43,189 nucleotides of DNA from Rhizaria sp. SCN 62-66 (Eukaryota), in assembly GCA_001724265.1 (NCBI GenBank), contig MEDY01000350.1, positions 1-43,189 on the forward strand. The letters run 5' to 3'. Below, piece by piece: positions 3,835 through 34,918 of this stretch; position 1 is the stretch's first letter; each line of letters begins with the position of its first letter. Below the pieces are notes generated by a model, which ran no database searches, was not told the DNA's origin, and saw only the letters and a list, made by a program, of their open reading frames with translations. Both the position numbers and the translations under genes were made by a program.

Positions 3835-6597
3835 CGGAGACGCATTCACATGAATGCTATTGAGACTACTACTGCTAATGCTGCTGCCGCGAGCACTAGC
3901 GGGGCTGGGACTGTGACTCTGGCTCTGACCAGTGTCACCTGTCGCTGTCTCAGTCGTCGTAGCGGGAGTGACTGTGAGCACGTAGCCACTTACACCAGCC
4001 CCACTTACATTCTCACCCCCACCTACATTCTCGCCACTAGTCGCACTTACATGAGCAGCACTTCCATGCGTACCATCTGCACGAGTCCCTTCACGATTAC
4101 TGGAGTTGTGATGAGAAGTATAGCCGCCGCTAGTGGCCGTGGGCAGGAGGGGTTTGCCCAGCCCTTGCCCCTCCCGCCACCCCATTTTGAGCATCAGCAT
4201 CCGGCCTTTGTTGTGGGGATCGGTCAACCTCGCGCCGCCGGGGGCCGCGAGGGGCGCGGTTGCAAGCGGGGGCACACTCGATTGCGACTGCAACTGCGAG
4301 GCGTTCGAAGCTTCGGTCGCAGTAGCAGTCGCCGCAGGAGTTTTAGCAGTTGCGGTTGCGTTGGCAGCGAGGGAGTTTGCGATTGCGAGGGCCTTGGCCA
4401 ACGCGTCATCAGTGTTGGCCTTCGCCGAGCCCACACTCGGACTCGCAGACGCAGGCGCATTGGGATGGGCATTCACAGTCGCATCCACGGGCGCAGTAGC
4501 AGAAGCATTATTAGCAGAAGCATGATTAGCAAAAGCATTATCAGCGTGAACGTTCACGTGACCGTGACCGTTAGCGTCAACAGCGTTTGCGAGAATGTGA
4601 GTGCGAATATTGGAAGAATCAGCGTCTTGATACAGCCCAGGGTACTGAGGGTTGCTCGGCATGAAAGTACCCTGACCATGATGGTAAGTACCCTGCGGGT
4701 AAGCACCCTGCGGCGGAGGCGGCGGGTAAGCACCTTGGTTGTAAGGGCTTTGAGGGTAAGCACCCTGCTGCGGGTAAGGACCCTGATGGTTGTTGTAAGG
4801 ACCCTGCGGCGGGTAAATACCCTGCACAGGGTAAGGACCAGAAGGGTAAGTACCAGGAGGGTAAGTCGCAGAAACAGGATGGCCCTGATTATACCCCTGA
4901 GCACTTACAGGCTGTAAGTAATGGTGGTGGTGCGGCGGGTAGGTAGCTTGGTTGGAAGGGTAAGGGTAATGGTGAGGGTGCGCATGGCCGTAATTGTAAG
5001 TACCCTGCTGCTGCTGATGCAGCTGCTGCTGCTGCAGCTGCTGCTGCTGCAGCTGCTGCTGCTGTTGCTGATGATGAGGATAGTAAGGACCCTGGGGAGG
5101 GTAAGGGTACTGTTGCTGCTGTTGTTGCTGCGGCCAATAAGGCGGCTGCAGCTGCGGCTGCTGATGTTGATTCATATACGCATTCGGAGCACTGGTATCA
5201 TGCTGATTTGAGTGAATCGCTTGATGCTGCTTTTTAGGCTGAAACGCTTGTGAATTGAGTGCATTATAGTCTAAAAAGCCGATATTCACACCCCGCACCA
5301 TCCCCGTCTCCTCATCACGGTCGACGCGCACCGAAGTTAAGCCGCTCAGACGAGAAACTAAGCCGCGGTCGTCGTCGGAAGTCAGGCCGCCGCCGCACTT
5401 GTGGCGGCTTCGGTAGTCGTAATAATCATCGTCATCATCACTATCAGCGTTGCTGCTGTTGTTGTTGTTACTCGAGTCGTATTCATAGTTAAACTTATCA
5501 GTAGCATTCTTGCTTTTGCTCGAAATGAGGCCGAGGCCAGCCCTGCTTTTACTCGAGCTGTTATTGGTATTGTTATTATTGTTGCTGCTGTTGTTGCTGA
5601 TACTAGCATTAGCAATGCTGCTGCTGCGGCCAAACCAACTACTAGTGCTACTGCTACTGCTACTGCCATTATTAGTATTATTGATGTTGTCGTTGTCGGT
5701 ATTATTAGTGCTTGACTCGCCCTTAGACGTTGCCGATGTAAGTACCCCTTGTTGTTGTAAGTAGTTCTCGAACCGTGCCCCCCGCCTCCGTAATACGACG
5801 TCAACATCGTCGCCATCTGCTGGCTCAGCAGTTTCCCCATTGCTCATAGTCGCAGTTGCAGTTGCAGTCGTAGCAGCAGCAGCGGCAGTTGCAGCAGTTA
5901 GAGCAGAAACAGCAGCAGTATTAGCCTGAGCAGTAGCACTAGCGTTGACTCTATCACTGGAAACAGGGTTATTGTCACTGGTAGCATTGGCGATAGAGTT
6001 ATTCGCTGTGATTAATGATTGAAAGTAGAGATATCCTACTGATTCGGTGTCAAATAGCCACTTAAACAGTGGGTTATCAGCGTTCTTTTGCTTGACGACT
6101 TGAATGAAAGCCGGCCCCTTAGATTTGACGAAGTTGGCTAAGTGTTCGATGGAACCACGTTCTTTCGCGTCAGAAGGAGGCTGCGGAAGCTGTGGCACAG
6201 ATGCTGCCGTGGCTGGTGTCTCAACAGGAGCAGCAGCAGTCGAAACAGGAGCAGTAGAGGCAGCAGGAGCAGGAGCGAAAGCCTAGAGAAGAGAAACAAA
6301 AGACACACTTATGAGAGCATACAAAGGCTTATATGTACAAATTCATTATAAAACATATTTTAACAAGTCTAGAACACTATGTCCATGCGTTGTTATAAAA
6401 TGCTGCCATTAAGACTCTTAAACATGGTATAAAGTGAAACGCACCTGAAAGACTGCGGCGGTGCCAGCTTTGACTGGGGGCCGGGCCGCATTTGTGCCTG
6501 CCGCCGAGCTGAGGTTAATGCGCAGCTTTACGGGCTGTTGCGGCGGGGGCGCGGGGGCCGCGGGTGGGGGCGAGGAAGGGTTTGGTGTTGGCTGCAT
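3361..6597 (-). CDS. SUGP1: SURP and G-patch domain splicing factor (SUGP1/SF4-like); exons 6597-6445 and 6282-3361
   Basis: SURP IEHLANFVKSKGPAF...NPLFKWLFD, G-patch NKGRMLMLKMGWREGQGLG, and the SUGP1-type C-terminus DEFEAFRNRMRKNYESRPNPLQNPRKKY. A phase-0 intron joins a 51-codon first exon in frame. Ends in TAA. Confidence 0.9.
4684..4920 (-). repeat. Degenerate coding tandem repeat encoding QG[A/P/T]YP units
   Basis: Repeated ggtaag(c/t/g)accc units on the + strand translate on the - strand as QGAYP/QGPYP/QGTYH. Confidence 0.8.
6283..6444 (-). other. Spliceosomal intron, 162 nt, phase 0
   Basis: CAG|GTGCGT...TTCTCTTCTCTAG|GCT; AT-rich; frame conserved. Confidence 0.88.
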
Positions 6598-7283
6598 AGA
6601 GCAAAGCGGGGCGTGACACGATCACGCGAAGATGGGATCAAACAACAAGGACGAGATAGAAAAACAAAGAGTGTACGCGAAATACAAACGAAAATAGCGC
6701 TAAATATGCGCTTGTGGTACTGAATATCGCTTTAGAACTAATGGAAAGAAAGGAAAATGCAAAGGGTTCAAGTTATCGTGGCCAAAGCCGAAGGGAAAGA
6801 GAAGCTGCTTCGAGAGCAAGAGTGGGGAGGTTGGGGGTAACAGGGGGTGGATTTGAGCTTCATAAACACAAACAGAAAACGCATGAAGCAAGTAAAAGCA
6901 TGAAAGCTAATTATTCTCTATCATACTCGCGCGCTATGCGCACAGCACGACGGGAATACTGTTTTTAGCATGTGATTTAGTCCGTGATTGCTCGGTCCGT
7001 GTGACTGTGGGGGCTGGCGACCGTTTGGAGGCTGCGGGCGGGGGAGCATCGAAGAGGGTTTCATTTGCAGCAATCTGGCGTCATTCCGCCGACAATACCG
7101 TCGAAGGTCGTCTCATTGTATATCACCTCTACCGATCTGATATAACTTTTGATTAAACCTCTCCACGACCTTTGCTTCCTGGTCTCCAGCCAAGTAGCGG
7201 AATCCGTCTCGCAGAGCAAGCCCCTCGCCCCCCGCCCCCCGCGCGCGCTTTTCAATATCCACGCCCTCACGTCAGCAACCCCG

Positions 7284-9029
7284 ATGTCCTCGTCGTTCCC
7301 CCTGCTCGCGCGTGACCTCCCGGCGCTGTTTCTCGCCAACGCGATTTCGGCCCGCGAGACCTACTCGTCTCTCTACGCCCGTCCCGCCCCAGAACTCCCA
7401 GAGTCGTACGTCACTTTGCCTCGATATATCGCAACAATCCCTTCTCTTCTTCACATCCTAACGGGCCTAAATCAACTGTTCACTCACTTTTGTTTTCATT
7501 TCCGTTTGATTTATTTCGCTTTGGGGATATCTTAAAGACATCTGAGTTATGCCGTGATGCTCAACAGCGAGTATGGCGAAGTCAAAGACTCGAAACGCCC
7601 CACTGCCGCAACGGCCTCCAAAGCCTCTGTCGCATCCGCTTCTTCTGCCTTTGTAGCCGACGGCGATGACGAGGAGGACTATGACACCTCCCGCAGCGGC
7701 TCTAAACGCTCCAAGGCCACCGCTAACAACAACAGCAGCAGCAGTAAGACTGACGTAGTCACTGCGGACTCCATCTCTGCTCTGTTTGCGACCCTTCCCG
7801 GCGCCGCCTCAGCCGCCTCCGCCGCCAACAACAACGCGACTGCGAGTACTCATAGCTCGAGCTCAAGCTCAGTTGTTCTCCGTGGTAGTAGCAATGGAAC
7901 CTCTGCCGCCCACGGTCACTCACTCGTTCTCTCCAACACGGACCCCAGCAGCTCCAGCAGTAGCAGTAGTAGCTTGGTGCCGAGGGGCGCTGCGACCGAC
8001 GCCATCGCCCGCAAACGCGCCCTCCGGTCCCGTCAGCCGCAGTGGCACGCGCCGTGGGAGCTGCGCCGCGTCATCACCGGCGGCCACCAGGGCTGGGTGC
8101 GATGCATCGCCGTGGACCCAGCGAACGAGTGGTTCGCCACGGGCGCCGCCGACCGGATGATCAAAATCTGGGATCTGGCGTCGGGGACGCTGAAGCTTTC
8201 GCTCACGGGCCACGTGGCGACTGTAAGGGGGCTGGATGTAAGTACCCGACACCCGTACCTGTTCTCCGCGTCGGAGGATAAAGAGGTCAAATGCTGGGAT
8301 TTGGAGCAGAACCACGTCGTGCGTAACTATCATGGCCACATCTCCGCCGTCACCACAGTCAAAGTCCACCCTGAGCTCGATCTCATCGTCACCGGCGGCC
8401 GCGACTCAAGTGTGAGGGTCTGGGACATGCGGTCTAAGCATTGCGTCCGCACGCTCGTCGGTCACAAGGGCGCCATCTCCTCGCTCGCGGCGCTGCCGAC
8501 AGACCCCCAGGTCGTCTCGGGCAGCGCGGACGGAACCGTCCGGCTCTGGGACATCGCCAGCGGCAAAACCGCCGTCACCCTAACCCACCACAAGAAGTCA
8601 GTCCGCGCCCTCGCGGTCCACCCGACGCAAAACGCCTTCATCTCCGCCTCCACGGACAGCATTCGGGCCTGGAAGCTGCCCGAGGGGGCCTTCATGCGGC
8701 AATGCGCCGGTCACGACGACGTCGTCAACGGCGTCGCAGTCAACAGCGGCGGCGTCCTAGCGGCCGGCTGCGACAACGGCCGCATTTCGCTCTGGGACTG
8801 GAGCACCGGCCACTGCTTCCAGACCCTGTGGATGCCACCGCAGCCCGGGTCCCTCGAGTCTGAACGCGGCATTTTTGACTGCGTGTTTGACCGCACGGGT
8901 ACCCGCCTGATCACGGCTGAGGCAGATAAGACAATCAAGGTTTTTGGTGAGAACCTGAAAGCCACGGAGCAGAGCCACCCAGTCAAGTTCGACGCTGCCG
9001 CGCACGTGCGCAAGATGCGCGGCGAGTGA
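7284..9029 (+). CDS. PLRG1: Pleiotropic regulator 1 / Prp46, WD40 subunit of the Prp19/NTC complex; exons 7284-7405 and 7538-9029
   Basis: [59 protein letters not shown] and [13 protein letters not shown]...[12 protein letters not shown] are family hallmarks. Splicing gives [21 protein letters not shown], resembling the PLRG1 N-terminus. Ends in TGA. Confidence 0.96.
7406..7537 (+). other. Spliceosomal intron, 132 nt, phase 2
   Basis: TC|GTACGT...TTAAAG|A; removes the in-frame TAA at 7533. Confidence 0.82.
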
Positions 9030-9660
9030 GCAAATGTAAGTGTATTTGTAAGGTGGTACTTACATACGTAAAGGGGCTGGCGACTTGAAAAACGCATTCG
9101 ACTTGAAGTTATGATAGAAAATAACAACGAATGTATTGTTTTAGAAGATGGCCAGGGAGGTGATATAAACTGGAAAGTCTATGTTTATTTGTGGAATACA
9201 AAGAATAATGTTTTATTATAAGTCAGTCAAGCGATGCTTTGTAATTCTATGGTTAACTTGTGATTAAGCACGTCGTTCGTATTATGAGAGTGTATTTAGG
9301 AGTCCTTAAGAAAAGAGACGAAACACAAGAAAGAAAGAATAACGAAAAATAAAGAACAAACTCTGGCCATACAACAGTAACTTGTTGTAACAGCGAAGCA
9401 AAGATACATGCAAAGTCAAACGAGAACGAAAAAGTCTGCTGCTTTTGTGTTCCAGTCAAAACATCAGACTTTTCACAAACGTACTTAAGTATTCACAATA
9501 AAAATCGCTTCTGCCAAACCACTTTGCGGATCTTTGTTTGCCGTCATTATTGCCACAATGCTGCGTTATATCCCACCGCAAAGTGGACATTGATCGCGTT
9601 TTCGAGTGATTTAGCGCACGTTGAGCGTGTTCCTTGTGTTTTCACTGCGTTTTTCTCACC

Positions 9661-9760
9661 AGTCACGGTCACTCCGTGTGTTTAGTGTTTAACTCACGGT
9701 CACTCAGTGTGTTTTCACGGTGCTTTCACTTAGTCAGTGTGTGTTGCTCACGGTCACTCA
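9661..9760. repeat. Degenerate ~25-30 bp tandem repeat (TCACGGTCACTCAGTGTGTT-like) in the Sec62 3' flank
   Basis: tcacggtcactc at 9663, 9694 and 9748; partial copy at 9715. Confidence 0.75.
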
Positions 9761-9767
9761 CCACCTC

Positions 9768-13977: not shown

Positions 13978-14010
<33 letters not shown>

Positions 14011-17000
14011 AGCAATGCTGCGCAAAGCCCGTCCTTAGCTCACAGTCACTCTGCCCACAGTCACCCCACGGGTTCCGGGACCTCTGCTGCTCACGGTCAC
14101 TCCGCGAGTGCGCATAGTCACCTGCACTCTCATAATAACTCAGCATCATCGTCGTCCTCTACAACTGCCTCGGCCGCCTCTGCCTCAGCCTCAGCCTCTG
14201 GTTCAATGTCATCTATGGCGACATCGCTGGCGGCGGCAAATGCGGCTCGTTTGACTGCAGGCCTGCCCACCCCGCTGGCCATCACCCTCGCGACCCCGGA
14301 GACGGCGACCGTCGCCGACGCTCTGCTCCCGCGGCAGCTCGTCGCGGCACTCAACATCACGCTCGCCCGCGCCTGCGCGTTGGCCCCGGCGACTGCTCTG
14401 TCGCGGTACGCGCCGGCGCATCCCCAGAGCCACTCTCAGCATCACCACCAGAGCACCAACAACAATAACAAGAGCAACAACAGCAGCTACAGTTATTGCG
14501 CACAGAACGGTCCTTGTGCTGCTGCTGCGGTTATGGTGTCGAATAGTAGTCATTATAGCGACAGGCGTGGTGGTGGGGTGTCGGACAGTGGAAGGACCCC
14601 CTTAGACGGGGTGAGTTCCCCCTTACCCAGCGACGACATCCCGCACAGGCCGCACGCGCCAAGCCCTTACCTCCCGCTCACTCAAAGTCAAGCCGCATCC
14701 GCGTCTGCAACTGCGACGGCGACGATGGGTACTCAGAATAGTTCAAGCACCCTCCTGCCACTCAGTGACACTGCTATGAATCAACCACACCAGCAGCAGC
14801 ACTTGCAGCCCCACATGTCCCTTCGCCGTCTCCGCACTCTCCTGCACTCGGCGAAGCGGCTCGATCGTGACTGCCGCCGCGCCGCCGCCGCCACCGCTCT
14901 GGCGCGCAAGCTCTCCGGGCTGATCGGAGACCTGGTGCGGTTGGGGGCCTCGGCGGCGGGCGCGTCGGCGGCGGCGGGCGCGGCGGGGGGGCTGGGAGCG
15001 GCACTGTCCTCGCTCAAGACGCCTGAGGCGGAGACCTTGCTGAGGGCTTCGGCGAACCAGCAACGGCTCCGTCAGCAGCAGCAGCAGCAACAACAGACAC
15101 AGGCGCAGTTTCAGTCGCAGCAATCGCAGAGTCAGACGCAGAGTCAGAGGGCAGAGGTACTCAGCGCCCATGTAAGTACCCTAAGTCCTGAAGCGACCGC
15201 TGCTGGCTTGGCCTCCACAGCCGCCTCTGCCGCCGCCAACGCCAGCGCGAGTGCTGTGAATACGATGATGGGTGACTATGACCACTAGCAGCAGCAAGAG
15301 AGCTCTCCAGTTTCTGCCGCGCTGCCGGAAATGGAGATGTTCACCCATCCTGACCCCACCGCGCCCGCAATCGCGAGTCAAATGCCTTATTCGCGGCCTC
15401 AGGCGCTGGCGCTGTCGATTCGTTCTGACTTGCTCGAGCTCAGCAACAACAACAACAACAACAATACCGGCACGAACGGCAGCAACACACCGCAGCAGCA
15501 GCAGCAGCAGCAGCAAGGTGCAGCTGCGTTTTCCCTGTCGCCCACTGCAACAATGCCGAGCACAGGCAACAACAACGGCAGCAGCAGTAGCGCTGTGAAC
15601 AACGACCTGTCCCCGGCTTTGGCGCGGTCAACCCTCGCCCACTTGTTCGAGGCCACCCGCATCGGCCTCATCCGCCTCGTCGAGTCCGAGCGCATCGCGA
15701 TCAAAACCCTTCTGGGCCGGGCCAACGAGGCGCAGACCGAGCCAGTTGGCATTCCGCTGCTGCGGATCGAGCGGGAAGTCGCCGCTCTGCATGCAGCGTT
15801 CGCGTTCTTCCGCGGCATGCCGTCGGCGGGCGCAGTGCTGGCCTCGCTGTTGCACGGCACAAGCCCCACTCCCGCTTCCGTTCCTCCAGCCCCTGCCACT
15901 GCCGCCGCTGCCACTGCCGCCGCCGCCGCTGCCACTGCGAACGATGCGACTGCTAGCTACAATAATATTATGAGTCTGAGCGGCAGCCATCACAACGGCA
16001 GCAGCGGGGGCGTGGAGAGTCCCAGTGACGCTAGCAGCGCTGGCGGTGGCAGAATGAGTATGCTGATTGCTAGCGGAGCCCTGCCTGTCGCTGAGGAAGC
16101 TGCTGCTGCCGCGGTCAGTGCAGCTGCGCTGTGCGCCGCGACGGCAGCGGCCGAGGCTGACCACCTGCAGCAGCAACAGCAGCATGTGCCGCAGATGCAG
16201 CAGCATGAGATGCTGTATCAGCATATGCAGCAACAGTACTCCAGCGCTGGCGATAATGTCAGTGCCGACGGTCTGAGTACCTCTGCCAGTGTCAGCGAGA
16301 GTGTAAGTGCTGCTTTGGGGAAGCGTGCCCGTGTGGCCGCCACCGGAACCGCCGCCGCCACTGCCGCTGCCGCTGCCACTGCTACTGCCACTGCCACTGC
16401 GACAGCTGCTGCGAACAAGGCAAAGACTGCAAAGGCCGCGAAAGCGAGCTCTAAGGCGACAACCAAGTCTCCCAACCCTAAGACGAATCGTTCCACCAAC
16501 AGCAGCAGGAGTTCCGGTGAAGACCCTGCTGCTGCGGCTGCTGCTGATGGTAGCAGCGGCTTTGGTGCAGCTCCAAACAACGGGGGCACTCCTCTGGTGT
16601 TCACTGCAACCGTTACTGGTGGCGCTCAGGTGAAGGCGAGTGCGGGTGTGAAGTCTCGTAAGGCCAGCTCAGTCGTTAAAAACAGCAGCAACGATGATGA
16701 CGATGACGATGATGGCAGTGAGGATGATGAGGGCGATGTAAGTACCTTGGTCCACTTACCCGCTCCCACAGTCGATAACACCACGAGCACGAGTACGATC
16801 GGCGGAAGCGGCACTCTAAGGGGCGGCAATCTAAGGGGGCTGAAGCGTCCACTTAGCTCGCCTGACTCACACTCAGCCGCTGCTGCTGCTGCCGCCGCTG
16901 TAGCTGCAGTGACTGCCGCCGCCGCGTCTCTGTCCACTGCAAACGAGTCTTCCCTTAACGGCGTCGATAATCCTAACCTCGTGGACTACGACAGCGAGAA

Positions 17001-17433
17001 CGCGTTTGCCAACTTTGACAACATCAACAACTCTGCTATCGACGTCAACACCACAGCTGCCACTGCTGCTGGTGGTGAGTTTGACTTGAGTCTGAACGTT
17101 GCCGCCGCCGCAACCGCCGGTGCCGCCGCTGGGGTAGATCCTGGCGCAGACGCCGCTGACGCTTTGATCACGGAGCTACAGCCTCAAAACACTCAACACC
17201 CAGTTACGGCCGCCTTCTTAGACGTCATCACTTCGCGCATGCTGCTGTTCTGCAACGCGACGGATGCTTTGCGTGTTCTCACGCGCCGCCGCATCTACTT
17301 AGCCGCGCTGCTGAAGCGGCTGCTCGTTGTAAGGGGGTACTTAGCGGGCGTCTCTGTCCGCATGTCACATACAGTCGCTCAGATCCGCTGGCTGGCACAA
17401 ACACTACTCGCCTCTGCCCCCCCAGTACAACAA

Positions 17434-17467
<34 letters not shown>

Positions 17468-20400: not shown

Positions 20401-23400
20401 TCTGCTGCGGGTGTTGATGGTAGCTCTGAGAGTGAGCGCAAAGAGGATGACATTCAGAGTGCCAGCGCTAATGCGAGTAGTAACGATGTTGGCGACGCGT
20501 GTTTTGACAGCGATATTGATGATGACGACGCTTTTATTCTCAATATCACGAACAAAGCGAATACTAACAAGCGTGTTACTACCTTTGGCGATGATCTCAG
20601 TCCTTTTGGCGAGGATGTCAGCACTCTGTCGACCCCTTACGTGGACTCGGACCCTTACAGCGCCGGGTACTTAGACCATATCGAGGCCCTTACATCCCTG
20701 CTCGACTCGGGCCACGCTCTCGCATCAACTGCGGCCCGCCTGCTCACCCTTACCCCGTCTAAGTACCCTCTTAGCCCGCGTAAGTGTTCCTCCGCGCGCC
20801 GCTTAGCCGCGTTCCTGGTCGCCCGCTACTGCTTTTGTGACCGCTGCTGCGCCCAGTTAGGGCTCAGCTTTGTCCTGCCGGACTCGGGGCCGGTGCCGAC
20901 GGGGGCCACGTTGACTGGCGTTGGAGCACGCTCGGTGCAAGTCATCACGACAACAACGCAAAATACCACTGCGTTCACGAACGCAACCTCGAGTTTGAGT
21001 AGCGCTCGTGCCGGTGCCTCAGCGATGAGCGATGACTCTGCCGTGAGTGCAAGCATGAGTGCTGGCGCGACCCCCTTAGACAGTGTAAGGGTGACCGTGA
21101 GCCGCCGCGTGCGCCGCACCGCTTCCGCTCCCCCCATCGCGGGCTTCGCAGTGACTGACTATGCGGCCAACTCGATCGTGCTGCCGCTGCCGACGCCGCG
21201 ACTCGCGCCGTTGCCTATCGCGGGCTCTGCTGTCACATCCACGAACAACAACAGTGGCAGCAACAACAACAGCAGCGGCTATAGTGTTAGCAGCAACAAT
21301 CCGGATGCCATGACTGCGAATGTCAACGGCGGTGCGTTGACCGAAGTCACTGCTCTCCGCGGAACCACTGACGGCTTAGCTTTGATGATACCCCACGGTC
21401 ACCACCACAGTCGCAATGCCAGTGGCGGCGGCGGCGGTGTGGGCACCGGTGGCGCTCACGGTCACTCTGGTAGTAGTTTCAGCGCGCCTGAGAAAGGTTC
21501 GCTCCGGTCACTGGCGTCATCGCGCCGCTCTTCACTCTCCAACAGCACTACCAACAACAGCAACAACAACAGCAGCGCCAACGCTCCCGAAGTGCAGAGC
21601 GCTGTGCCGCAGTTGCAGCTGCAGCTGCTATCCCCGGTGCTCGTGCGGGCGCAAGCGGCGAAGATGATGTCTATGCTGCGCCTTGCACACTCGCTCCCGT
21701 TCATCGTCACCAACTACGCCAACAACAACAAGGCCCGTTTGCGCTCACAACAACAGCAACGATTGCGACAGCAAGCCTTCTGTCTGTCACTGTCGCAGGC
21801 ACAAGCGTCGTCGGTGCTGCCGCTGTGGCAGCCGATGCCAGCGTCGAACGGCTTCATCGTCCTCGCACCACCCGAGTCTGTTGAGCTCACATTCAGCAAC
21901 GACTCCAGCTTCTGCTCTGACCCCGCCAGCAACGGCTACGATGGCAAACGCTCTCGCACCCGTGCCAGTGCCAGTAGCGCGGGCTCGAGCTCGAGCTCGA
22001 GTGGTGTTGCTTCAGCGTCTGATCGCAAGCAACAGCTGCGGCGGCAGAAGCAACAGGAGCGGCGGCAGAAGCAGCAGCAGCAGCGGTTGCTGTTGCAGTC
22101 GCTGCTCGGTGATGAAGGCCAGGGCGCGGCGAAGATCTCACAGCTTTCCTTTGCCAACGCTGTGATTAACGGTACGATTGACATCAGTCACGAAGACCAA
22201 GGCGTTGCCTACCAAGCTGGAAACGAAAACAAGAGCGATGAAGAGCAAAAAGTCAAGCCGCCTTCTGGTGTCAACACTGCGAATGACTGTGAGCTCTGTG
22301 ACTGTGGCAGCTGCCACTCGTTCAACAACAACAGCGCTGACAGCGGCTCTAGTGCGAGTGCGAATGCAATGAGTGACGATGTTGTTGTTGTGACGAGGAC
22401 TTGTACAGATGCGTGTAAGTACCCCTTAGACTCTGACCTTGTCGCTCTAGACACGCTTTACCTGCCCTTGTCCAACACCAGCAACGATAACGAAAGCATC
22501 ACCACTCTGAACACCCTCCTCCGCAATACCTCCAGCAGCAACGCATCGTCTTTAAGTCCTCACAGCGACAACGTGGCCGCTGCGAGCACTGCGTTATCGG
22601 CCGCGCTGCACTCCGCCGCCGCCCCTGTGCCCGCCGCGGCCGCTCTGCTCACAGTCACCCACTCTCTATCCAGTCTCTGCACGCTGGCGAGCACGTTCGC
22701 GGCCGCCGCCGATCTGTGGTGCTGCGACGATCCCGCCATCGACGCCGCCGCCGCCGCGCTCGTGTCGACCTCGTTCGCGATCCAGAGCATTGGCAACGTC
22801 CACGGCACGCTCGGCGTCGCGAGTATTTACGACACCCCGCGCACGCCGCTGCATTTATCGCGGCATGATACTTTCTTGTTCCCTGGACTGGCGGAAATCG
22901 GACTGGGCAGCGCGTCTGCGGCCGCTGCAGTCGCGGCCGCGGCGGCGCAGGCGACCAGCGCGAGCAGCATCAACGCGAGAACTAGCAGTAGAAACGCTCA
23001 CAACAACGCAAACGATGGCAACGATAAAGACGACGATCCTCTGGACGAGAACGCTGCTACGAGTGCGAATGCGAGAGTCTTTGACTCGCCTGTCGTCGTC
23101 GCAGTCACCACGACCGCAGCCACTCCGTCTTTCACGCCCATCAACGCCGCCGCCGCCAACATCGCCACCAACATCGCCACTACCAGCAGCGCCGCCGCTG
23201 CCAACGCGCCTCTCAACGACCTCGCTGCCTCAAGCTCTGGCTCCGGCTCTGACGCTGGCGCTAGCGGCGGCGTTGGGGCTGGGTCGAGCACCACTGGCAC
23301 GACGGCCAATAGCATCCTCTACACGGTCGCCGATCTCGTGCTCATGTGCTACGCTGAGGCCGCCGCCAGTCTGCGCGACCTCGAGCAGGCCTCTCTGCTG

Positions 23401-26400: not shown

Positions 26401-29400
26401 TATGCAGTGCCAGTGCTGACGGATTTGCGCTTTAGCTCGATGCACAACCCGACTGGCACTGTGTCGACACTCTCTGCCGCGCTTGATAACAACCACTATA
26501 ACTCCACAAGCCTGAACTCTGTGGCCGCCAGCATCTCTGCGAACGCGAGTGGTCAGAGCGTGCACTCGCCTTTGCATAGCAACAGCAGCGGCAGCGCCAG
26601 TAATCTCAACAGCGGCGGACTCAGTCCCCCCGCCCCTTCGCCGATCAGCTCTGGCGCTGGCGCCGGCATTGGTCTAAGTACCCCGGGCTTCGGTGTAAGT
26701 GCTGGTGGCGTTGGTGGTGCCGGCAGCGGCTTTTATTTGAAGCAAGGCCAGAAATGCCCTTTCTGCACCCCCAACATCGACAATACCAGTGGCCATAGCA
26801 ACGCACTGTTAGCTAACTCTATCGCGAGCGCGAACGCGACGGTGACGTCGGGTCAATTCGGCCCCAGCGTCGTTGTCCCCGCCGTCACCACCACCGCCCC
26901 AACCGCCCACGGCCAGCAGCACCCTTACCCGACCCCGACCGATGTAAGTACCCTCCCGCACCCGCACCCGCTCTTCGCGGCCCCCGAGCTCACCTACACC
27001 CACGTCCACGCCGCCGCCGCCGGTGTCGGCGGCGTGTTGCGCCCGGGGCTCGGCGTTTCGCTCGCAGCAACGCCGCACACGGCGGGCTCGTGCTGCCCGC
27101 TGTGCGGCGGCGGCCCCACCGTGCTGGCGCTGACGCCGACGCCCGCGGCAGACGTGTGGTCGTACGGCATGATTTTATATCTAGCCGCGTTTGGGGACGC
27201 CGACGCGCTGGAGTCGAAGTACTCGCCGGCGTCGGCGTCGTCCAAGGGGGCCGCGGCGGCGGGCTCAAAATCGTCTAAGGGGGCGGCGGGGCACTGGCCG
27301 CCTCGCATCCACTACAGCCTTAGCGCGACTGCGGCAGTGACGGGCGGCAAGAACAGCTCCGGCAGCGGCGGCAGTGCGAGTCTGAATGCGGGCTTGAGCC
27401 ACGGTTTCGTGGTTATCCCGCCCCACCCGGATCCGCTGCTCACTGATCTGCTGTCCAAGTGTCTCATCGTGGACCCCGCGCAACGCGCCACGACTGACAG
27501 CCTGTTGCAGCACCCGTGGTTTTCGTCCAGTACGCGCGACACTCCAGCTCCGGCGTCGCTGGCGCTGCAGACGCCCACGGTCACCCCGGCGGTTCGCCTC
27601 GCGGCCTATCAGCGCACGCCGACCACCGCCGTTGCGCCCGCCGCCGTCGCTGCCGCCGCGGTGCAGGCCTTGGGCTTTGTCGGCACTCCCAGTGCCAGTG
27701 TGAGCCCGTACTACGGCGCTGTCGCCGCGCCCAAGGGCAAGAGAGGCCGTGTGCGCTCGTTCACGACGACTGCGGCCAACAGTCTCCGCTACTCACTCAC
27801 CTGCAGTCGCAGTAACAACAACAGCAATAGCTCTGCGATGAACGCGGGCCGGAGTGGCGTTGTTCCGAAGCTAAGCCGCCACGTGTCCCCTCGGCTTGGC
27901 ATCCGTCTGCTCACTCTGGCCATCACGCCGTCACTGGTTCCCGCCGCCGCCGCGCTGCCGGCGGCGCCGCGTCTGCGCCCGGCGCTCATCCCGTCGATCC
28001 CGACGTCGCTGGCGTCGAACCCGCTGTGTTTATCGCTCGCACTCAAGGACTGGCTGTCTGCGTCGTCCGTAGCACTGCTGTCCCGCGGAGGGTTCTCCTA
28101 CGGGGGAGTCGGCAGCGTGCGCGTGCGACTTCACCCGGCACCCATGTTCCCCGGAGGACTTGCTGCGGTGCTCTTCGCCATCCCCAAGGGCTCGCCTGCC
28201 GCAGCGGGCACGGCGGGAACGGTGGGCAGCGCCACGGGTCGTGGGTTCGTCAGGAATGACATGGCGCTCAGTGTCGGCGAGCGAATGGCTCTCGATGAAG
28301 AAGAAGTACGTGCTTTCCTTTACCGCGTTAACTCACTTTAATTCAATTATAACTTTAACCTTAAATAATTAACGTGTTTTATTTCATAATCTCTTTGTTT
28401 TATTGTTATAAATGCATATCTCACACTTTTCTCTTCAATATTGACTCTTGGTGTCTTTGTTTCCTAACAGTCGGCTCCTGCGTGCTTGGCAGTGCCGCTG
28501 CCGCTGTTGCTGGGTCTGCAGTCGCTATGGCCCAAGCAGGGCCCACAGCTGGTACTCATGGGCACCGGCTCCCACTCACACTATCTCAACCGCGCCAATC
28601 TCTATAATACCGGCGGCAACACGAACACTGGCTTTTTAGGCAATATTCTCAGTGCAAGCGGCGTCAGTGTCGTGAACCTCGCTCCCGGTCTCCCTGACCC
28701 AACGCCGATCCCTCTGTCTACGTCCACGACCGCGACTACGCCCCTTACATCGATGCGCAGTCTGAGTACCCCGTTGTCCGCGTCATCGCTCAGCAGCTTC
28801 AACGTTGATAACAACAGCAACAACAGTCCCAGTCTCCTCAGCGCCAACGCCAACGACCTCAGCCCTTCCGCGACTGTCACTTCTTTCTCATCTTCTTCAG
28901 CATCCACAACGGTGACTAGGGCTGTTGTCAGTGGCAAAGCGCGTCGCCAGCTGCGCCGCGCCGCCGCCGCCGCGGCCGCCACCTTTTTCTCGCTGCCACA
29001 GCTGCTCAAAGCCCGCGCCGGCGCAGCACACGCCGCGAGCTGCGGTGCCCAGGGCGTGGCCGCGGCCGCCGCAGCGATGGCGCTGGCCCCTGGCGTTGCC
29101 CAGACGCGCGCGCTGGACATCTCCATCGCGGTCGGCGCCGCGCTGTCGCCCACGTCGCTGCTGGCGTCTGCGTCGACCGCCGCGCTCGCCAGTCTCAACA
29201 GCGCCAGCAACGCCGCGATCGCCAATGCAGGCGGCGCGGCGGGCGGCGGTCACGGCGGCGGCGCCGCGGGCGGGTCGGCCGCGGCGACTAGCGGCACAGC
29301 GGCCGCCGTCGTCGCGTCGGGCGCGCTGGCGGCGGCGATCTTCCCCAACGTCACCACTGTTGCGCCGGCCACTCCGCTCCTCCTCGGTACGCTTTGTTTT

Positions 29401-32400
29401 CAACATATGTCGCATTTGAAGTCATATATTTTATCTAATTAAACCAAAAACTTGCTATTTTATCAATTCTTGTATTTTATATATTTGGTCAAAATTTTAT
29501 ATCATAACTATTTTTTCTTTGTTATCAATTTCTACTCGTTAACTATAGGTATCGGCGACACTGTGGCAGGTACCGGCGTCTCCCAGTCAGCCGCCCTCAA
29601 CGCCCTCGCCGTTGCCACCGCGGCCCCTTCCGCCGGTGCGGCCTCCCTCGGCCGATCGCTGCCGCCGCCTCCACGCTCCCTTCGCCCGCTCCTCGAGGCT
29701 GCGCTGGACTCGGGCTCCACGGCCAACGTGCCCGCGATCATCGACGGCATCCGCGCAGTGGCCCGCGCCGCGCTGCTGCGCGCGGGCAGGCTGTCCGTGC
29801 CGATCCCGCTGCTGCTGCCGCAGACGCCCGCCAGCAGCGAGGGCACCAGCCTCGCCGCCGCCGCCGTCGCCGCGGGCGCCGCGGGCGCGGGTGTCGGCTC
29901 TGGCGCCGGCGCCGGCCTCGCGTCCGCCACAGCCACCCACGCGCTGCGGTTCCGCCTCCCGCGCGCCGCCTGCGTGGCGCCGCTGCTCTCGCAGCTGACC
30001 GGGGTCGAGGGCGCCGATCTCGCCCTCCCGCCCCGGACGAGCTACACCGACGACCTCAGCGCGGCCGCGGACACGGGCGGCGTCACGGCCGACCTGCTCA
30101 CCGTCGCGTTTGAGCAGCTTGTGGCGGACGCGCACAGGCAGAACAGCAGCTCCAGCTCCAGCTCGAGCTCAGAGTCGGACGAGTCGGACTTTGGGGAAGG
30201 CTGGTTGGGCGCTGGAGCCGCAGCTCGCTTTAAACAGCAACAACGCAAGGCTGCGGCTGCTGACAGCGACAGCGACGACGACGGCGACGAAGACGACAAG
30301 AACGACAATAATGAGCCTGTGTGCACGTGTACTAACGACGCCAGCGCTAGCTCTCGCGCCAACGCAATGACTGACGATGACGACACCGCCACGAACACTA
30401 GCGAGAGCTTAACTGCCGCTGCTGCGGACGAAAACAGGAACGGGAGCAAGAAGATTAAGTGCCGCCACTGTTTCCCTCGTTTGCCGAAGCATCTCCGGCT
30501 CCTGCGCAAGCAGCAGCAGCAGCAGAAGATGTTGCGCCAGCAGCAGCGCGCTGCCCGCCGCGCCGCGCGCGCGGGCCCCAGTCTGTTCGAAGTGTGCGAA
30601 CTGGAGACCTCTCCTGCTCACGGCCACCAGAACCTCTCCACTTCCGGCGGAGACGGTGCGGCTGGTGCGCCCAAGGGTGTGGTGTCGTACTTGCCGCGTG
30701 CGTGGGACCCGGATGAGAGGGCGAGGACCGAAAAAAGGCGCCAGAACCGCCGTGAGTGGAAGAAGGAGATCAAGAATCGCAGAAAGCTCAACAGGAGCAA
30801 GTTTTACAACGACTTTGACGAAAGCTCGACAACGACGACTCCTGCGACTGCCAAGAGCAGTGCTGAGATCAACGAGGAAGAAGAAGAGAAGAACAACAAC
30901 AACTCTACAAACACTCTAAACTCTCAGAAGCAGCAAACGCACTCGAAGACTAAGACCAAGACTCAAAGCAAAAACAGCAACTCTACCACGACCTCGAGCA
31001 GCACTGCAAGTGCAAATGCGAGTGCGAGCGCTAGCAGCAGCTTGGAGGGCTGGCTGGAGCAGTTCCGCGCCGTCGGCAAGCTTCTGTTCCTGTCTGTCTA
31101 CCACGGCATTCCTCTGCCGGCCGCGCAAGCGCTGCACCCGGCGATCTGGCGCACGCTTGTCTCACCGGCGCCCGTGCCGCGCAGTCAAAACGGCTATTGG
31201 CACGAGCGGTGCGACGGGTATGCGGAGCAGAGTGAGACTGTGGAGGTCACGGTACCCGGTCTCGTTCCCAATCACGGTCTCGGTCTAGGTGGCAACTCTG
31301 CGTCGGCGTCGCTTAGTGGCGGACTGAGCGCCTCGTACACGAGTCTAAGTGGGCCCTTCAGCTCTGCGCACACTGCCTCTCATACTGGTGGCTTTGCGAG
31401 TGCGGATGACAGCGATGGCGGTAGTGAGCTGTGGGTGGCCGCCGTTGCTGCTGCGGCAACCGCGGTCGCCAAGGCGAATTCGCAGGCGCACACAGAGACT
31501 GCGGCTAGCATCGACAACAGCAACAAAGCTCTAGCGAACGCGAACACAGCTACTAAGACTAAACCACCTAGTAATAGCAGTAGTAATCACAACACGAGCA
31601 ACAATGTGAGTGAAAGCGAGGTTATCGACAGTGACAATGAGAACTCTCAGTCTCACTACCACAACGCGAAGCCGAAGTCTCAGCTCAGGCTGATCTTGAC
31701 CGACATCCTCACAGCCACTGTCTCCGACTCCCCAACTGCTTCGCCTGTAAGTACCCCCTTAGACCGGACGACCGTGAGCTACAGCACGTCCCGCTCCTCC
31801 CACCTCCGCTTCGGTCTCCCCTCGGGCCCTAAGTCCTGCTCCATCTCTGACGCACGGCTCGCCCTCTGGCTGCCTGCGCCGCTGCGCACCTCGGCCCCCA
31901 CGGCGCTGCGCAACGCGCTCACGCACTCGCACCGCGTCTCGGGCTTTGGGCCCGTCACGCTGTCCGCGTCCATCGCCGCTGTCAGCGCCGCCACGGCCGC
32001 GGCGGCCGTGGCGGCGCGCGGCGGACCAGCTCGGCGGCGGGCTCGAGCTGTGGCGCTGCCTCAAGGCCGCGGCGATCGCGAAACCCACCGAGGCTGCCAC
32101 AGCGGCCGCGGCCGCGGCGGCGGCGGAGGCGGCGGCAGCGGTAGTCACGGCCGCCGCGGCTGCCGCTGCAGGCTCTAACAACGCCAGTATGGGTGGCGGC
32201 AGGAGCTCTAACGCTGCGGCCGCAGCTGGCGATGCCTACGCTGACTCCGCCTCTGCTGCTGCCGCTGCCGCCGCTGCTGCTGCTGCCGCTGCGAGCGGTA
32301 GCGCAACTGCCATGTCCGCGACCGCGCCCCCCGAAGGCTTCCAGTGTCCCTACTCTCTGCAGTCCTTCAGCAGCCCCGGTGGGCTGGAGGTGGCGACCAC

Positions 32401-34918
32401 GCCGTCGTGGCTGCGGCAGCTGCTGCGGCTGTCAGGCGCCGAGCTGCGTGCGCTGAACCTCACGTTCGCTGATTTACCGCTTGACGTGCTCGAGCTGCTG
32501 TCGCCCGCGGCGGCTGGCGTCGCTGCGCTGACATCGCTCAGCCCTGACCTGGCTCTCAACAGCGCCGCGGGGGCATGCCCGGCGGATGGCGCCGGCGCGC
32601 ACGCTTCGGGCAGTGGCCTCGGCAACCGTGCTGCCGGCGCCGCGAGAGGGAGCTCAAGCAGCGGCAGCGGCGGTGCTGGCGCTGTAGGGCTCGGCTTCGG
32701 GCTTAACGGCCTCGGCGACGTGAATCGAGCTGCGGCGGCGATCGCTGAAGAGCCGGCGTGTCTCAGCGGCACCAACAGCAGCGGATGCTTCATGCTGCTT
32801 CCGCCCTCGGCAGCGCACGCATTGCTACGGATTCCTGTCAGCGCTCGTGCAGAGGCGTTTGGCACCAGCTCCACGGCGGACTCGCTCATGGCCTCGTCCC
32901 TTTACACGGATCTAAGTACCACGCCCGGTCACAGCGCTGCCTCTTATAACAACAACGGCAACAAAGCCAACGCCAACGGCAACGGTAACAGCCATCACAG
33001 TAGCTCTTTGTTGGCCACGAGCAATGCTAATTCGACGACAACAGCACATTACACTCTGTCTGTGAACGCAACCACGCGCACCATTACAGTGCGCCGGCTC
33101 GTTTCCCGTTACAGTCCAGCGCATATCTATTCGTATCCGCCGCCATTGATCGCGCACGCGCTGCCAGGACCTGGGCCTGGGCCACAGGTACGTACATCGA
33201 ACGCCCGCTATCTGTCAATGCCTATATGTCTGGCTAATTGAACTCTGGAATTGGTTTACTTTGTATGTCCATGTAATTGTTACGTTTATTGTAATTAATT
33301 TTGATTTTTTTCTATTTAACTTACTATTGTCCGATCTATCTGCTTTTGTGTTTTGTAGGGTCTGTCGGGCCTGACCGCGCCGTCAGCCACCCCGGCCCTT
33401 GCCGCGCCCATCTCCTGGGTTGCGGCCGTCGGGCCACGCCTCGCGCTCGGGGCAGCGGGCACCGCGGGCCTCACCCCGGTCTCTGTTAGGCTCTACGTCG
33501 CGCTGGCGTCGCTCTGGCACACTGTCGGTGCACGGGCGCCCGAGCTGGTCGCTCTGCGCGAGGGCTTCCACCAAATCGCAGAGGTACGTTCTTGACGACA
33601 ACAACCCACTCGATATTATCTCTATACTCTCTATCTGTCTTTCTGATGTGTTTCAAATGTTTATTGTGTATCACCTTATTTGGCGTGTCTGAAATCGAAT
33701 ACGCTCACTTATATCTGTGCATATTCCTTACACGACCGCTCCTTTTGTGTCATTTTGATTCATTTTGTGTAGATTTACCCGCTGGTGTCTGCGCTCGGCT
33801 GGCAGCGGCTTCGCGACGTCATCTGCGGCAGCGGCCCCGGCAGCGCCCTGCACGGCAGCAACGGCGGCGGCGGCGACGCCGGTGTCGTCGCAGCTGCCGT
33901 CGCCGCGGCGACCGCAGCAGCGGAGGCAGAGGAAGAGGACGAAGCTCAGCTGTGGCAGCAAGCGAAGCGTATCAGCTCGAGTGCGAGCAAGACGAGCTTC
34001 AAGATCAACGGGCAGTCCCGCGGCGGCCGTCGCTCCCGTCCCCACGACGACGGTGCGAATACACACGGCAAAGACGCTGGCGACAATCACAATGACGGCG
34101 ACAGCGACAGCTATCACCGTCGTCGTGACTTGACCGCTCGTTCTAATGCGAGGAGTATGAGTGTGAACGGCGGTAGCGGGCTTAAGGCTGACGACATTCT
34201 GCGCTGTATCGTCTTCTCTGAAGAGTGGTTCCGTCCCCACCCTCGTCCTAACATCACTAGCACCACGCATAGCAGTAACAACAACAAGGCTGCAACCAAA
34301 TTAGTTTTCTCCCAGACTCCCAAGCACTTAGTCGAGGTCATCAAAGAGCTTTCTCCGATCGACCTCCGCCGTCTCCTGCGTCTCTGCACATCCCTCACAG
34401 CCTTGCCATCAGCGCCCCTGTTGCAGCCGCCGCTGCCGCCCGCCGCCGCCACGGCCGCCGTCGCCGTCGCCGCCGCCGCCGCTGCTGCCCCGCCTGCCCT
34501 CGCCTTCCCAGTTCCTGCCCCCTTCGCGTTCGGCACGTCGGGCGCCGCGGCGGCCGCGAGTCCCAGCGCGGCCGGCTCGAACGCCGGCCACATCCCTGAC
34601 GGCAGCGCCAACGGCGGCGACGGGTTCGGACTCGGGCTAGGACTGGGACTCGGAGGGCTGGGCGGCGCCGCGGCGGCCTCGGCGGCCGCGGCGGCCGCCG
34701 CCGCCGCGGCGGCGGCTGGTGCAGGCGCCGCTGTGGCAGTGCCTGGGCGGGGGCTGTTGATCAGCGTGATTCGTACCGGTGACACGAGCAGGTTACCCGT
34801 GGGTCTCACGTGCTCCAACACGCTCAACTTGCCCGACTACGGCTCCAAGAGCGAGCTGCGGCGGAAGCTGCGGATTGTGCTCGACCATGTTGACGCAACG
34901 GGGTTTGGCTATATCTAA
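12430..34918 (+). CDS. Giant (~7,200 aa) low-complexity protein with a dispersed pseudokinase domain and a C-terminal HECT ubiquitin ligase domain; exons 12430-25173, 25324-28305, 28471-29386, 29549-33187, 33359-33583 and 33773-34918; one in-frame TAG (15286) and one apparent +1 frameshift (~32017)
   Basis: Five AT-rich GT-AG introns join the ORFs in matching phase, and kinase and HECT motifs appear in canonical order. Ends TAA TGA. Including 12430-15288 depends on readthrough or splicing of the TAG. Confidence 0.75.
23731..27522 (+). other. Protein kinase-fold domain (probable pseudokinase) split by long inserts and one intron
   Basis: LGGNGG...RVFVIEK (I/II-like, ~23740), VFADGDDIFIATQTPPLGTL (IV-V), LTALASLHRAGASHGNLHPGAV (VIa/b, 25111), PVLTDLRF (VII, 26422), FAAPEL (VIII, 26980), ADVWSYGMILY (IX, 27151) and DLLSKCLIVDPAQRATTDSLLQHPWF (XI). 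Confidence 0.88.
25174..25323 (+). other. Spliceosomal intron, 150 nt, phase 0
   Basis: CAG|GTCCGT...CTTCAG|GAC; AT-rich; contains the in-frame TAA at 25222. Confidence 0.85.
28306..28470 (+). other. Spliceosomal intron, 165 nt, phase 0
   Basis: GAA|GTACGT...TTCCTAACAG|TCG. Confidence 0.87.
29387..29548 (+). other. Spliceosomal intron, 162 nt, phase 1
   Basis: G|GTACGC...AACTATAG|GT; very AT-rich. Confidence 0.87.
33188..33358 (+). other. Spliceosomal intron, 171 nt, phase 0
   Basis: CAG|GTACGT...TTTTGTAG|GGT. Confidence 0.87.
33584..33772 (+). other. Spliceosomal intron, 189 nt, phase 0
   Basis: GAG|GTACGT...TTTTGTGTAG|ATT; reconstitutes the HECT LREGF...ICG segment. Confidence 0.88.

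Follow-up and report, generated by a model that had tools for sequence, protein, structure and literature searches.

A near-palindromic 18-base word (GTAAGTACCCCCTTAGAC), together with both of its halves, recurs in coding exons across many mutually unrelated genes of an uncultured GC-rich, intron-poor eukaryote from wastewater. The word is a real, multi-copy, nucleotide-level feature of coding sequence. Our preferred interpretation, held tentatively and at somewhat less than even confidence, is that it is a recognition word in double-stranded DNA, maintained or driven at tolerant codons of gene bodies and read by a putative dimeric or bipartite protein. The window analysed here is a contig of 43,189 nucleotides from Rhizaria sp. 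SCN 62-66 (MEDY01000350.1). Its eukaryotic host is evident from the PLRG1, SURP/G-patch and HECT genes and from the introns. Among the named relatives of its PLRG1, the best belong to early-diverging fungi and animals, with identities of about 60% and none closer.

Copies of the word and their distribution

The exact 18-mer was found at 12 loci in one metagenome, one of them in the window and 11 elsewhere in unrelated genes. The ORFs carrying it include those with Thg1, zinc-knuckle, Dus, PRMT5 and TBCC domains. The flanks of 11 of the 12 had no match to the window; identical copies thus occupy unlinked loci. A search of the prokaryote-genome and viral collections returned zero matches to the 18-mer. 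Near-copies with 1 to 4 mismatches numbered 13, compared with 0.3 expected, and the copies form a graded decay series in which the letters lost are the AT letters of the arms. Over 18 to 21 bp the consensus reads (AG)T-GTAAGTACCCCCTTAGAC-(G): the base at -1 is T in 11 of the 12 exact-copy flanks, AGT is preferred (6/12), and junctions of the type CTTAGAC-AGT-GTAAG are present. Isolated halves, each consisting of an arm and the adjoining spacer, are about as frequent as whole copies. Several exact copies lie within lineage-specific, low-complexity stretches, and further dispersed word families are present in the same genome. In sample X4, 12 loose ends were observed at 31746, only a hint of other copies there. 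At the level of titles and abstracts, the literature on the 11-letter core and on in-frame palindromic repeats held nothing relevant.

Within the window (Table 1), every site listed in an earlier sequence-only reading was located: five of five full copies, the variant at 19402, all nine STAAGTACC half-sites, the reversed copy near 20665, and four of four CCCTTAGAC sites. That reading had overlooked copies at 2216-2235 (minus strand, 17/18 letters) and 14590-14607 (16/18) as well as half-sites at 4846 and 4996. The single copy outside an ORF probably lies within a 3' UTR, and hence no copy was found in clearly untranscribed DNA. A role as poly-A signal was rejected, TGTAA not being common to six 3' flanks. 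Tandem 21-base arrays of the word were not found beyond short arrays of 15-18 bases (SURP/G-patch gene; 16808-16838).

Table 1. Copies, halves and arms of the word in the window
Feature	Position	Strand	Reading or context
17/18 copy in GNAT gene	2216..2235	-	Sense strand S K G V L T; within Acetyltransf_3 match
A-type halves at 4684, 4846, 4996 and 5738, with GTAAG[C/G]ACCC relatives	4684..5745	+	Antisense to SURP/G-patch gene; partly inside 15-18 base tandem repeats
B-type half CCCTTAGAC	5720..5728	+	
Two arms 15 bases apart, TGTAAGGGGG and GATGTAAGTACCC	8223..8247	+	PLRG1; conserved T-V-R-G and V-S-T-R
Sole copy outside an ORF	9048..9063	-	19 bases past PLRG1 stop codon; within longer palindrome ATGTAAGT...ACTTACAT at 9034-9066
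16/18 variant GGAAGGACCCCCTTAGAC	14590..14607	+	Followed by another arm at 14611-14628
A-type half GTAAGTACCCTAAGT	15172..15186	+	V S T L S
A-type half and inverted arm 16 bases on	16738..16760	+	GTAAGTACCTTGGTCCACTTACC
Two B-type halves 15 bases apart	16815..16838	-	TCTAAGGGG, TCTAAGGGGG
Full copy, antisense to gene	17329..17344	-	Sense strand GTA AGG GGG TAC TTA = V R G Y L
B-type half CCCTTAGAC	19039..19047	+	S P L D
16/18 variant GCAAGTACCCCCTTGGAC	19402..19419	+	TA step altered in each arm
Two direct A-type halves 18 bases apart	19714..19741	+	L S T P A D L S I P
Dense STAAG/CTTAS arm cluster	20636..20802		Includes reversed half GGGTACTTAGAC at 20664-20675
Full copy CTAAGTACCCTCTTAG	20759..20774	+	15/18 letters over 20759-20776; S K Y P L S
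B-type half then arm, CCCTTAGACAGTGTAAGGG	21073..21091	+	CTTA-N7-TAAG
17-base version, one C fewer	22415..22431	+	Other frame upstream: TGT AAG TAC CCC TTA GAC = C K Y P L D
A-type half and TGTAAGTG arm 21 bases on	26674..26702	+	
A-type half	26944..26952	+	D V S T L
B-type half GTCTAAGGGGG	27274..27284	-	
Exact 18-mer GTAAGTACCCCCTTAGAC	31747..31764	+	GTA AGT ACC CCC TTA GAC = V S T P L D; giant HECT gene
A-type half CTAAGTACC	32912..32920	+	Poly-A RNA-library contig reads straight through

Enrichment over chance

Under an order-3 Markov model, TAAGTACCC was observed 13 times with 0.15 expected and CCCTTAGAC 8 times with 0.17 expected. In 13 ORFs the shorter string TAAGTAC occurred 12 times in sense and 7 times in antisense orientation. 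A synonymous-codon shuffle gave 1.47 and 1.42, with none of 500 shuffles as high, and a third-base shuffle that holds the protein, the codon usage and all dinucleotides constant gave 1.33 and 1.71, with none of 1000 as high. A shuffle test of this kind had been named in the sequence-only reading, and the enrichment survived it under the dinucleotide-keeping null. With the same shuffle the STAAGK arm exceeded the null on both strands (41 vs 12.7 and 48 vs 30.3), and GTAAGT was found 19 times in sense (4.05 expected) and 14 times in antisense (9.05 expected). The tetramer TAAG, earlier thought to be unusual in these exons, is not rare (70 in sense vs 57 expected). The impression that copies cluster was borne out: 82 arm pairs, 11 of them ascertained, lie at most 40 bases apart, against roughly 18 estimated from 182 arms in 72,898 bases. 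Likewise, the gene at 36.5-43.2 kb, described before as poor in the motif, shows no arm excess over the null, with 1 and 4 arms vs 1.1 and 4.6 in 36518-41419 and 1 and 1 vs 0.6 and 2.1 in 41420-43189. For this orphan gene neither a Pfam family nor a useful Atlas neighbour was found. The gene richest in the word is about 22 kb long. Two further candidate causes were rejected. Restriction-type avoidance was not indicated, the observed/expected ratio of GTAC being an unremarkable 1.16, and 'hidden stop' selection found no support in the off-frame TAA/TAG codons, which lack overall enrichment (+1 frame, z = 0.8/0.0; +2 frame, z = -4.0/-5.2).

Arm symmetry and folding

The word is composed of two inverted STAAG arms around the fixed spacer TACCCC, with arm centres one helical turn apart. 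Inverted arms occur at fixed spacings of 10 and 11 bases: there are 18 instances of TAAG-N6-CTTA, 7 of them unascertained, and 5 of CTTA-N7-TAAG, where 0.11 would be expected for each class. Both arrangements were also enriched over the shuffle null (4 vs 0.45 and 4 vs 0.32). In the region 20749-20785 they are chained as CTTA-N7-TAAG-N6-CTTA-N7-TAAG, with spacings of 11, 10 and 11. The word thus displays the inverted half-sites at fixed spacing that characterize a dyad-symmetric site. It is also asymmetric, the left arm being mostly GTAAG and the right mostly CTTAG, with a fixed, non-palindromic spacer.

A stable hairpin was rejected as the conserved property. The fold of the dominant form has an energy of -2.7 kcal/mol (z = +0.44), matched by 132 of 200 shuffled sequences; good folds are limited to the minority CTAAG forms, e.g. 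at -11.4 kcal/mol. At the variable arm position the combinations G/G, C/G, C/C and G/C are all found and the mismatched G/G is commonest, so that compensatory changes are lacking and the stem does not covary. Hairpin strength is not what is kept.

Reading frame, strand and codon spelling

Ten of the 12 exact 18-mers are read in a single sense frame as V-S-T-P-L-D. The 29 unascertained A-halves comprise 14 in sense frame 0, 4 in sense frame 1, 10 in antisense and 1 in non-coding sequence; among the 22 unascertained B-halves, 9 are in sense frame 0, 1 is in sense frame 1, 11 are antisense and 1 is unassigned. Pooled, 21 of these 51 halves are antisense and 5 lie in the second sense frame. The earlier statement that the motif is placed regardless of frame and strand was too strong; halves do occur on both strands. 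Because one sense and one antisense frame of the word contain stop codons, this frame bias may only mirror the peptides that are tolerated.

The word is spelled with rare codons: GTA accounts for 47 of 682 Val codons, of which 18 are followed by AG, and TTA for 54 of 950 Leu codons. One rare-codon spelling is common to 8 of 36 [VL]-S-T and 5 of 10 P-L-D tripeptides. Together with the antisense copies, this agrees with the earlier view that the word is not a peptide motif. An origin as a by-product of a peptide motif or of codon pairs was rejected on the basis of the synonymous and the dinucleotide-keeping shuffles.

Relation to protein sequence, introns and transcripts

The residues encoded by the arms in PLRG1 align without gaps to human PLRG1. 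At the TBCC-domain copy the alignment contains a one-residue gap and no six-residue insertion, and a single Pfam match (Acetyltransf_3) runs uninterrupted across the copy in the GNAT gene. The remaining loci fall in unalignable stretches. No duplicated letters that would represent a target-site duplication surround the word in the 12 flanks, and in four runs over 20 kb, where cover is partly thin, letters were seen to be neither gained nor lost at the copies. The alternative offered in the sequence-only reading, a tiny mobile element, is weakened by the missing insertion in PLRG1 and TBCC, the uninterrupted GNAT match and the missing target-site duplication.

The first six letters of the word, GTAAGT, are the canonical splice-donor consensus. 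The real introns of this genome start with GTACGY, GTATGT or GTCCGT. Five introns of the HECT gene start with GTACGT (three), GTACGC or GTCCGT, are 150-189 bases long and have a GC content of 0.23-0.38. GTAAGT was found at an exon-to-AT-rich transition in only 1 of 64 cases. In 10 of the 12 loci the same frame remains open for hundreds of codons on either side of the word, and removing 16 bases at 31747 leads to a TGA after four codons. Judged from reading-frame continuity, the word is not spliced. A micro-intron of the form GTAAGT...TTAG was rejected in view of this continuity, the different real splice sites and the PLRG1 alignment. Neither a joint nor a small deletion was listed at a copy in the four runs. 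The RNA data, in the form of contigs, bridge only the 32912 half-site, through which a poly-A RNA-library contig covers 32607-32957; none spans a full copy. An apparent splice-like frame change between the ORFs at 29443-32178 and 31778-33241 proved to be an assembly difference: locus L005 has 64 extra bases within a GCC repeat, and its ORF is continuous. Real genes were noted to contain three in-frame TAG codons, two falling within CTTAG arms. Within the 73 kb of this genome that the analysis covered, no Rfam family, no tRNA and no U1 gene was detected.

Interpretation and alternative explanations

We tentatively regard the word as a lineage-specific DNA word of 18 to 21 bp with many copies in the genome, whole or as either half. 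It would have entered exons through codon choice, and through amino-acid choice where the protein tolerates it, with no added block. A dimeric or bipartite sequence-specific protein acting in gene bodies would read the double-stranded word, which selection or a conversion-type drive may hold against GC pressure and codon bias. Three steps here are inferred: the molecule being read is DNA and not RNA, it is bound by a protein, and this binding has an effect. The original proposal of a binding site for a dimeric protein is consistent with the two fixed inverted spacings and the halves on both strands; it is unproven, and the asymmetric arms and spacer, which a plain homodimer site would not need, speak against it. 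Also at odds with a DNA site are the shared sense frame of 10 of the 12 exact copies, the sense lean of the A-halves (18 vs 10), solitary halves about as common as whole copies, and only one copy outside an ORF. Frame bias and sense lean also fit an RNA-level role. A broader form of the DNA reading, which we consider doubtful, sees the word as the eukaryotic nuclear counterpart of uptake sequences, Chi sites or REP, that is, as a drive-spread word or a 'self' mark with a dedicated DNA-binding protein. Such a word would override codon bias and, where tolerated, protein sequence, and would be missing from some genes, e.g. the orphan gene at 36.5-43.2 kb.

An element of the mRNA, in which the sense word would be bound in the transcript by the U1 snRNP or another RNA-binding protein without splicing, seems unlikely to us. 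It could possibly shield very long intron-poor transcripts from premature 3' end formation, or mark them for export or stability. The sense orientation of 10 of the 12 exact copies, the GTAAGT excess being larger in sense than in antisense, the peak of word density in the gene of about 22 kb and the poly-A library contig across one half-site all agree with this. Furthermore, the word can stay unspliced in exons because real introns start otherwise and GTAAGT so seldom marks a transition to AT-rich sequence. However, the B-halves are as often antisense (11) as sense (10), 10 of the 29 A-halves are antisense, neither the CTAAG arms nor the B-half look like a splice donor, a stable hairpin is lacking in the dominant form, the arms do not covary, no U1 gene was found in the 73 kb, and peptide tolerance alone can account for the frame bias. 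A further alternative is that the word is a by-product of the peptide [VL]-S-T-P-L-D, such as a proline-directed phospho-site, together with codon usage that depends on context. This explanation is very improbable and largely refuted. The V/L-S-T frame in 10 of 12 exact copies and 14 of 18 sense A-halves, and the recurrence of P-L-D in one frame, would suit it. The word is nevertheless spelled with the rarest Val and Leu codons and identically every time, the enrichment outlasts shuffles that fix protein, codon usage and dinucleotides, about one third of the halves lie in antisense and some more use the second frame, and one copy is non-coding.

That the word of 18 to 21 bases is a self-propagating micro-element, spreading by copy-and-paste or short-patch conversion (molecular drive), with copies then decaying under GC pressure and surviving only at tolerated peptides, has in our view a low probability. 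It would account for 12 identical copies with unrelated flanks, the graded loss of AT letters from the arms, the length of 18 bases (six codons), AGT as the commonest 5' flank with its CTTAGAC-AGT-GTAAG junctions, the exact copies in lineage-specific low-complexity stretches, and the other dispersed word families of the genome. Against it, the PLRG1 and TBCC copies lack a six-residue insertion, the 12 flanks carry no target-site duplication, no letters were gained or lost at copies in the four runs over 20 kb (with partly thin cover), and overwriting 18 bases without longer homology corresponds to no known eukaryotic mechanism. A micro-intron of 15-16 bases excised from the mRNA is suggested by four of five full copies beginning with GT and four ending with AG, and by the need to explain the three in-frame TAG codons, but is extremely improbable. 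Removal of 16 bases would shift a frame that stays open to either side in 10 of the 12 loci, and at 31747 it would meet a TGA after four codons; the five real introns are AT-rich, far longer (150-189 bases) and start with GTACGY or GTCCGT; in PLRG1, the residues that the word encodes can be aligned with those of homologues; and no joint or small deletion was listed at copies in four runs, the RNA contigs having reached no full copy.

Comparison with known systems

Words over-represented throughout a genome and embedded in coding sequence are a classic bacterial feature and have revealed uptake, recombination or repeat-spreading machinery. We are not aware of any eukaryote with a single exact 18-base word repeated across exons of unrelated housekeeping genes. 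If the word binds a protein or is maintained by drive, it would point to a novel process in gene bodies, within a eukaryotic branch so far unsampled, and would offer a clear-cut example of selection on nucleotides prevailing over codon usage and protein sequence. In practice, it serves as a specific marker of the host organism in wastewater metagenomes.

The DUS/USS of Neisseria and Pasteurellaceae are words of 9-12 or more bases that occur far above chance in coding sequence on both strands, at tolerant positions, in preferred frames and often as inverted pairs; they are maintained by drive and not by the proteins that contain them, are bacterial and are tied to natural competence. Our word resembles them as an over-represented, coding-embedded word on both strands with preferred frames and inverted pairs, a likeness of pattern only. 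In contrast, it occurs in a eukaryote that possesses introns and spliceosome genes; it is also longer, and its asymmetric spacer is fixed. Rickettsia palindromic elements and bacterial REP-type repeats, of about 35-150 bases, are block insertions that add residues and form stable folds. Like these, our word is a palindromic repeat found in-frame within ORFs at many unlinked loci, whereas it measures only 18-21 bases, brings no inserted block in PLRG1 and TBCC, and is not stably folded in its dominant form.

At the RNA level, exonic binding of the U1 snRNP at GTAAGT-type 5' splice sites is known as 'telescripting'. The donor consensus in the first six letters of the word and the sense enrichment in a very long gene are reminiscent of it; however, the introns of this genome start with GTACGY, GTATGT or GTCCGT, the word is apparently unspliced and also occurs in antisense, and its second half is not donor-like. 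Finally, small-RNA target sites of plants are near-perfect and confined to the members of one gene family. They share with our word a nucleotide-level conservation over about 20 bases of the coding sense strand, synonymous positions included, whereas our word is spread over unrelated housekeeping genes, with antisense copies and half-sites being common.

Enrichment and anatomy of the word

Every position reported by the sequence-only reading proved correct on re-check. TAAGTACCC occurred in 11 plus-strand and 2 minus-strand copies in the window against 0.15 expected under an order-3 Markov model, and CCCTTAGAC in 8 copies against 0.17. Within 13 ORFs TAAGTAC was counted 12 times in sense and 7 times in antisense. 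Shuffling synonymous codons yielded 1.47 sense and 1.42 antisense copies and reached the observed count in none of 500 trials; a stricter shuffle preserving protein, codon usage and all dinucleotides yielded 1.33 and 1.71. None of 1000 such stricter shuffles reached the count, so the lack of enrichment over a null that would have refuted that reading was not observed. Enrichment differs by gene, being strong in the giant HECT gene, PLRG1 and the SURP gene and absent at 36.5-43.2 kb, in agreement with the scarcity of copies previously noted for the last gene.

Arms have the form (CG)T-S-TAAG. The A-half (left side) joins an arm to TACCC and the B-half (right side), read on the opposite strand, an arm to GGGGG. 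In the full word an A-half overlaps an inverted B-half. Exact copies are preceded by T in 11 of 12 cases, by AGT in 6 of 12, and frequently followed by G. At an expectation of 0.11 per class, TAAG-N6-CTTA arm pairs numbered 18, of which 7 were unascertained (besides the copies by which loci were chosen), and CTTA-N7-TAAG pairs 5. Direct arm pairs, spaced 12, 15, 18 and 21 bases, match the expectation for in-frame peptide repeats.

The word is a nucleotide-level feature. Val is spelled GTA least often (47 of 682 codons), yet 18 of these 47 GTA codons are followed by AG, and Val-Ser is most often spelled GTAAGT. A single spelling is shared by 8 of 36 [VL]-S-T and 5 of 10 P-L-D tripeptides, bearing out the view that this is not a peptide motif. 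The arms at 8223-8247 lie in PLRG1, where T-V-R-G and V-S-T-R, the residues they encode, are in gapless alignment with the human protein.

The longest ORF reads V-S-T-P-L-D in 10 of the 12 exact copies; of the remaining two, one runs antisense to an ORF of 2229 bases and the other is ambiguous. Unascertained A-halves comprised 14 in sense frame 0, 4 in sense frame 1, 10 antisense and 1 non-coding, and unascertained B-halves 9, 1 and 11, with 1 unassigned. The claim that the motif disregards frame and strand was thus only half right, because halves occupy both strands but one frame prevails. Read in one of its sense frames or in one of its antisense frames, the word contains stop codons, and V-S-T-P-L-D fits the Ser/Thr/Pro-rich character of the carrier proteins; a large part of the bias can thus be put down to which peptides are tolerated. 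An origin as a by-product of selection for off-frame stops was rejected.

Distribution across the genome

Searches with the exact 18-mer GTAAGTACCCCCTTAGAC found 12 loci in the metagenome collection, every one in a single assembly, and nothing in the collections of prokaryote genomes and viruses. At the 11 loci other than the window's own (L005), similarity to the window is limited to the word, and the ORFs carry Thg1, zinc-knuckle, Dus, PRMT5 or TBCC domains or no domain. The word is genome-wide. The 29.7 kb flanking exact copies hold 10 further A-halves and 10 B-halves, and 13 unascertained near-copies with 1 to 4 mismatches were found in 73 kb (the window and the flanks of the other loci) against 0.3 expected.

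Genes of the window

The window is eukaryotic, encoding full-length PLRG1/Prp46 (alignment with human PLRG1 at 1e-135), a SURP plus G-patch protein, a GNAT acetyltransferase, an EF-Tu-type GTPase and a HECT domain. The closest named PLRG1 relatives, early-diverging fungi and animals, share about 60% identity, and none nearer was found among named relatives. The DNA is present in bioreactor, wastewater and activated-sludge sequencing runs.

The ORFs at 12418-34918 form a single giant gene with the HECT domain at its end, and removal of five AT-rich introns (GC 0.23-0.38; starting GTACGT, GTACGC or GTCCGT) leaves frames without internal stops. All five intron lengths are divisible by three (chance about 0.004). 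The apparent frame change between ORFs 29443-32178 and 31778-33241 is false, reflecting a collapsed GCC-rich repeat, because L005 has 64 bases missing from the window at about 32021 and a single ORF. An orphan ORF at 36518-43189 (6.6 kb, GC 0.55, lower) is broken once, by an in-frame TAG; it matched no Pfam family, and the word is not in excess there. The contig begins with a (CA)31 microsatellite (1-62).

Real coding frames are interrupted by three isolated in-frame stops, each of them TAG. A CCCTTAG arm contains the stop at L006, another locus with the 18-mer, where the Dus Pfam score rises from 140.8 to 149.7 bits when the gene is read through this stop. The six gene ends examined use TGA (2) or TAA (4), never TAG. 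Together these observations suggest TAG read-through, or TAG as a sense codon.

Of two other dispersed words, (G)CTCAC[AG]GTCAC(TC) had 49 copies among the matches listed in the 73 kb, frequently as tandem arrays of 15-18 bases in coding and non-coding DNA, and GAAGT[TC]AAGCCGC had about 17.

Coordinates of features in the window and at other loci carrying the exact 18-mer (L003, L006, L007)
Feature	Position	Remarks
8-base perfect inverted repeat ATGTAAGT...ACTTACAT around a third arm	9034-9066	directly 3' of PLRG1 stop codon; sole non-coding copy of the motif
Giant HECT gene intron	25174-25323	150 bases
Giant HECT gene intron	28306-28470	165 bases
Giant HECT gene intron	29387-29548	162 bases
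Giant HECT gene intron	33188-33358	171 bases
Giant HECT gene intron	33584-33772	189 bases
Isolated in-frame TAG	15286-15288	
Isolated in-frame TAG	41417-41419	orphan ORF
Isolated in-frame TAG	L006 1152-1154	minus strand
Further dispersed words, example sites	9664-9757; 14041-14100; L007 3738-3800; L003 455-493	

Interpretation

Several readings were rejected. Removal of 16 bases as an intron would break the frame, yet the frame is continuous through the word, and the real introns of this genome are AT-rich and begin GTACGY or GTCCGT. One contig from a poly-A library reads through the half-site at 32912, and contigs of another sample, of unstated kind, span 19402-20774 and 22415 without any change; small deletions were absent from the differences listed between the sequencing-run contigs and the window. 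A stable hairpin was rejected, as the dominant form has no folding advantage over shuffled sequence and no covariation links the two arms. Aligned copies exclude an inserted block in conserved domains, the GNAT copy lying within one uninterrupted Pfam match.

We tentatively favour, at somewhat less than even chances, a word recognised as double-stranded DNA by a putative dimeric or bipartite protein and maintained or driven at gene-body codons that tolerate it. The arms are arranged as a dyad, both strands are used, and neither a hairpin nor a splicing function is seen, all of which speak for this reading. Weighing against it are a bias to the sense frame, arms and spacer that are not symmetric, many solitary halves, and the fact that none of the copies in the 73 kb lies in clearly untranscribed DNA. 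The main rival, an mRNA element in the form of a donor-like word unused by this genome's spliceosome, seems unlikely, and a conversion-type micro-element carries the same low weight. All three were weighed on the 73 kb of sequence, with RNA as contigs.

Titles and abstracts of the literature yielded no comparable eukaryotic word. In pattern the word is most like bacterial uptake sequences and less closely like Rickettsia palindromic elements; it would belong to neither family.
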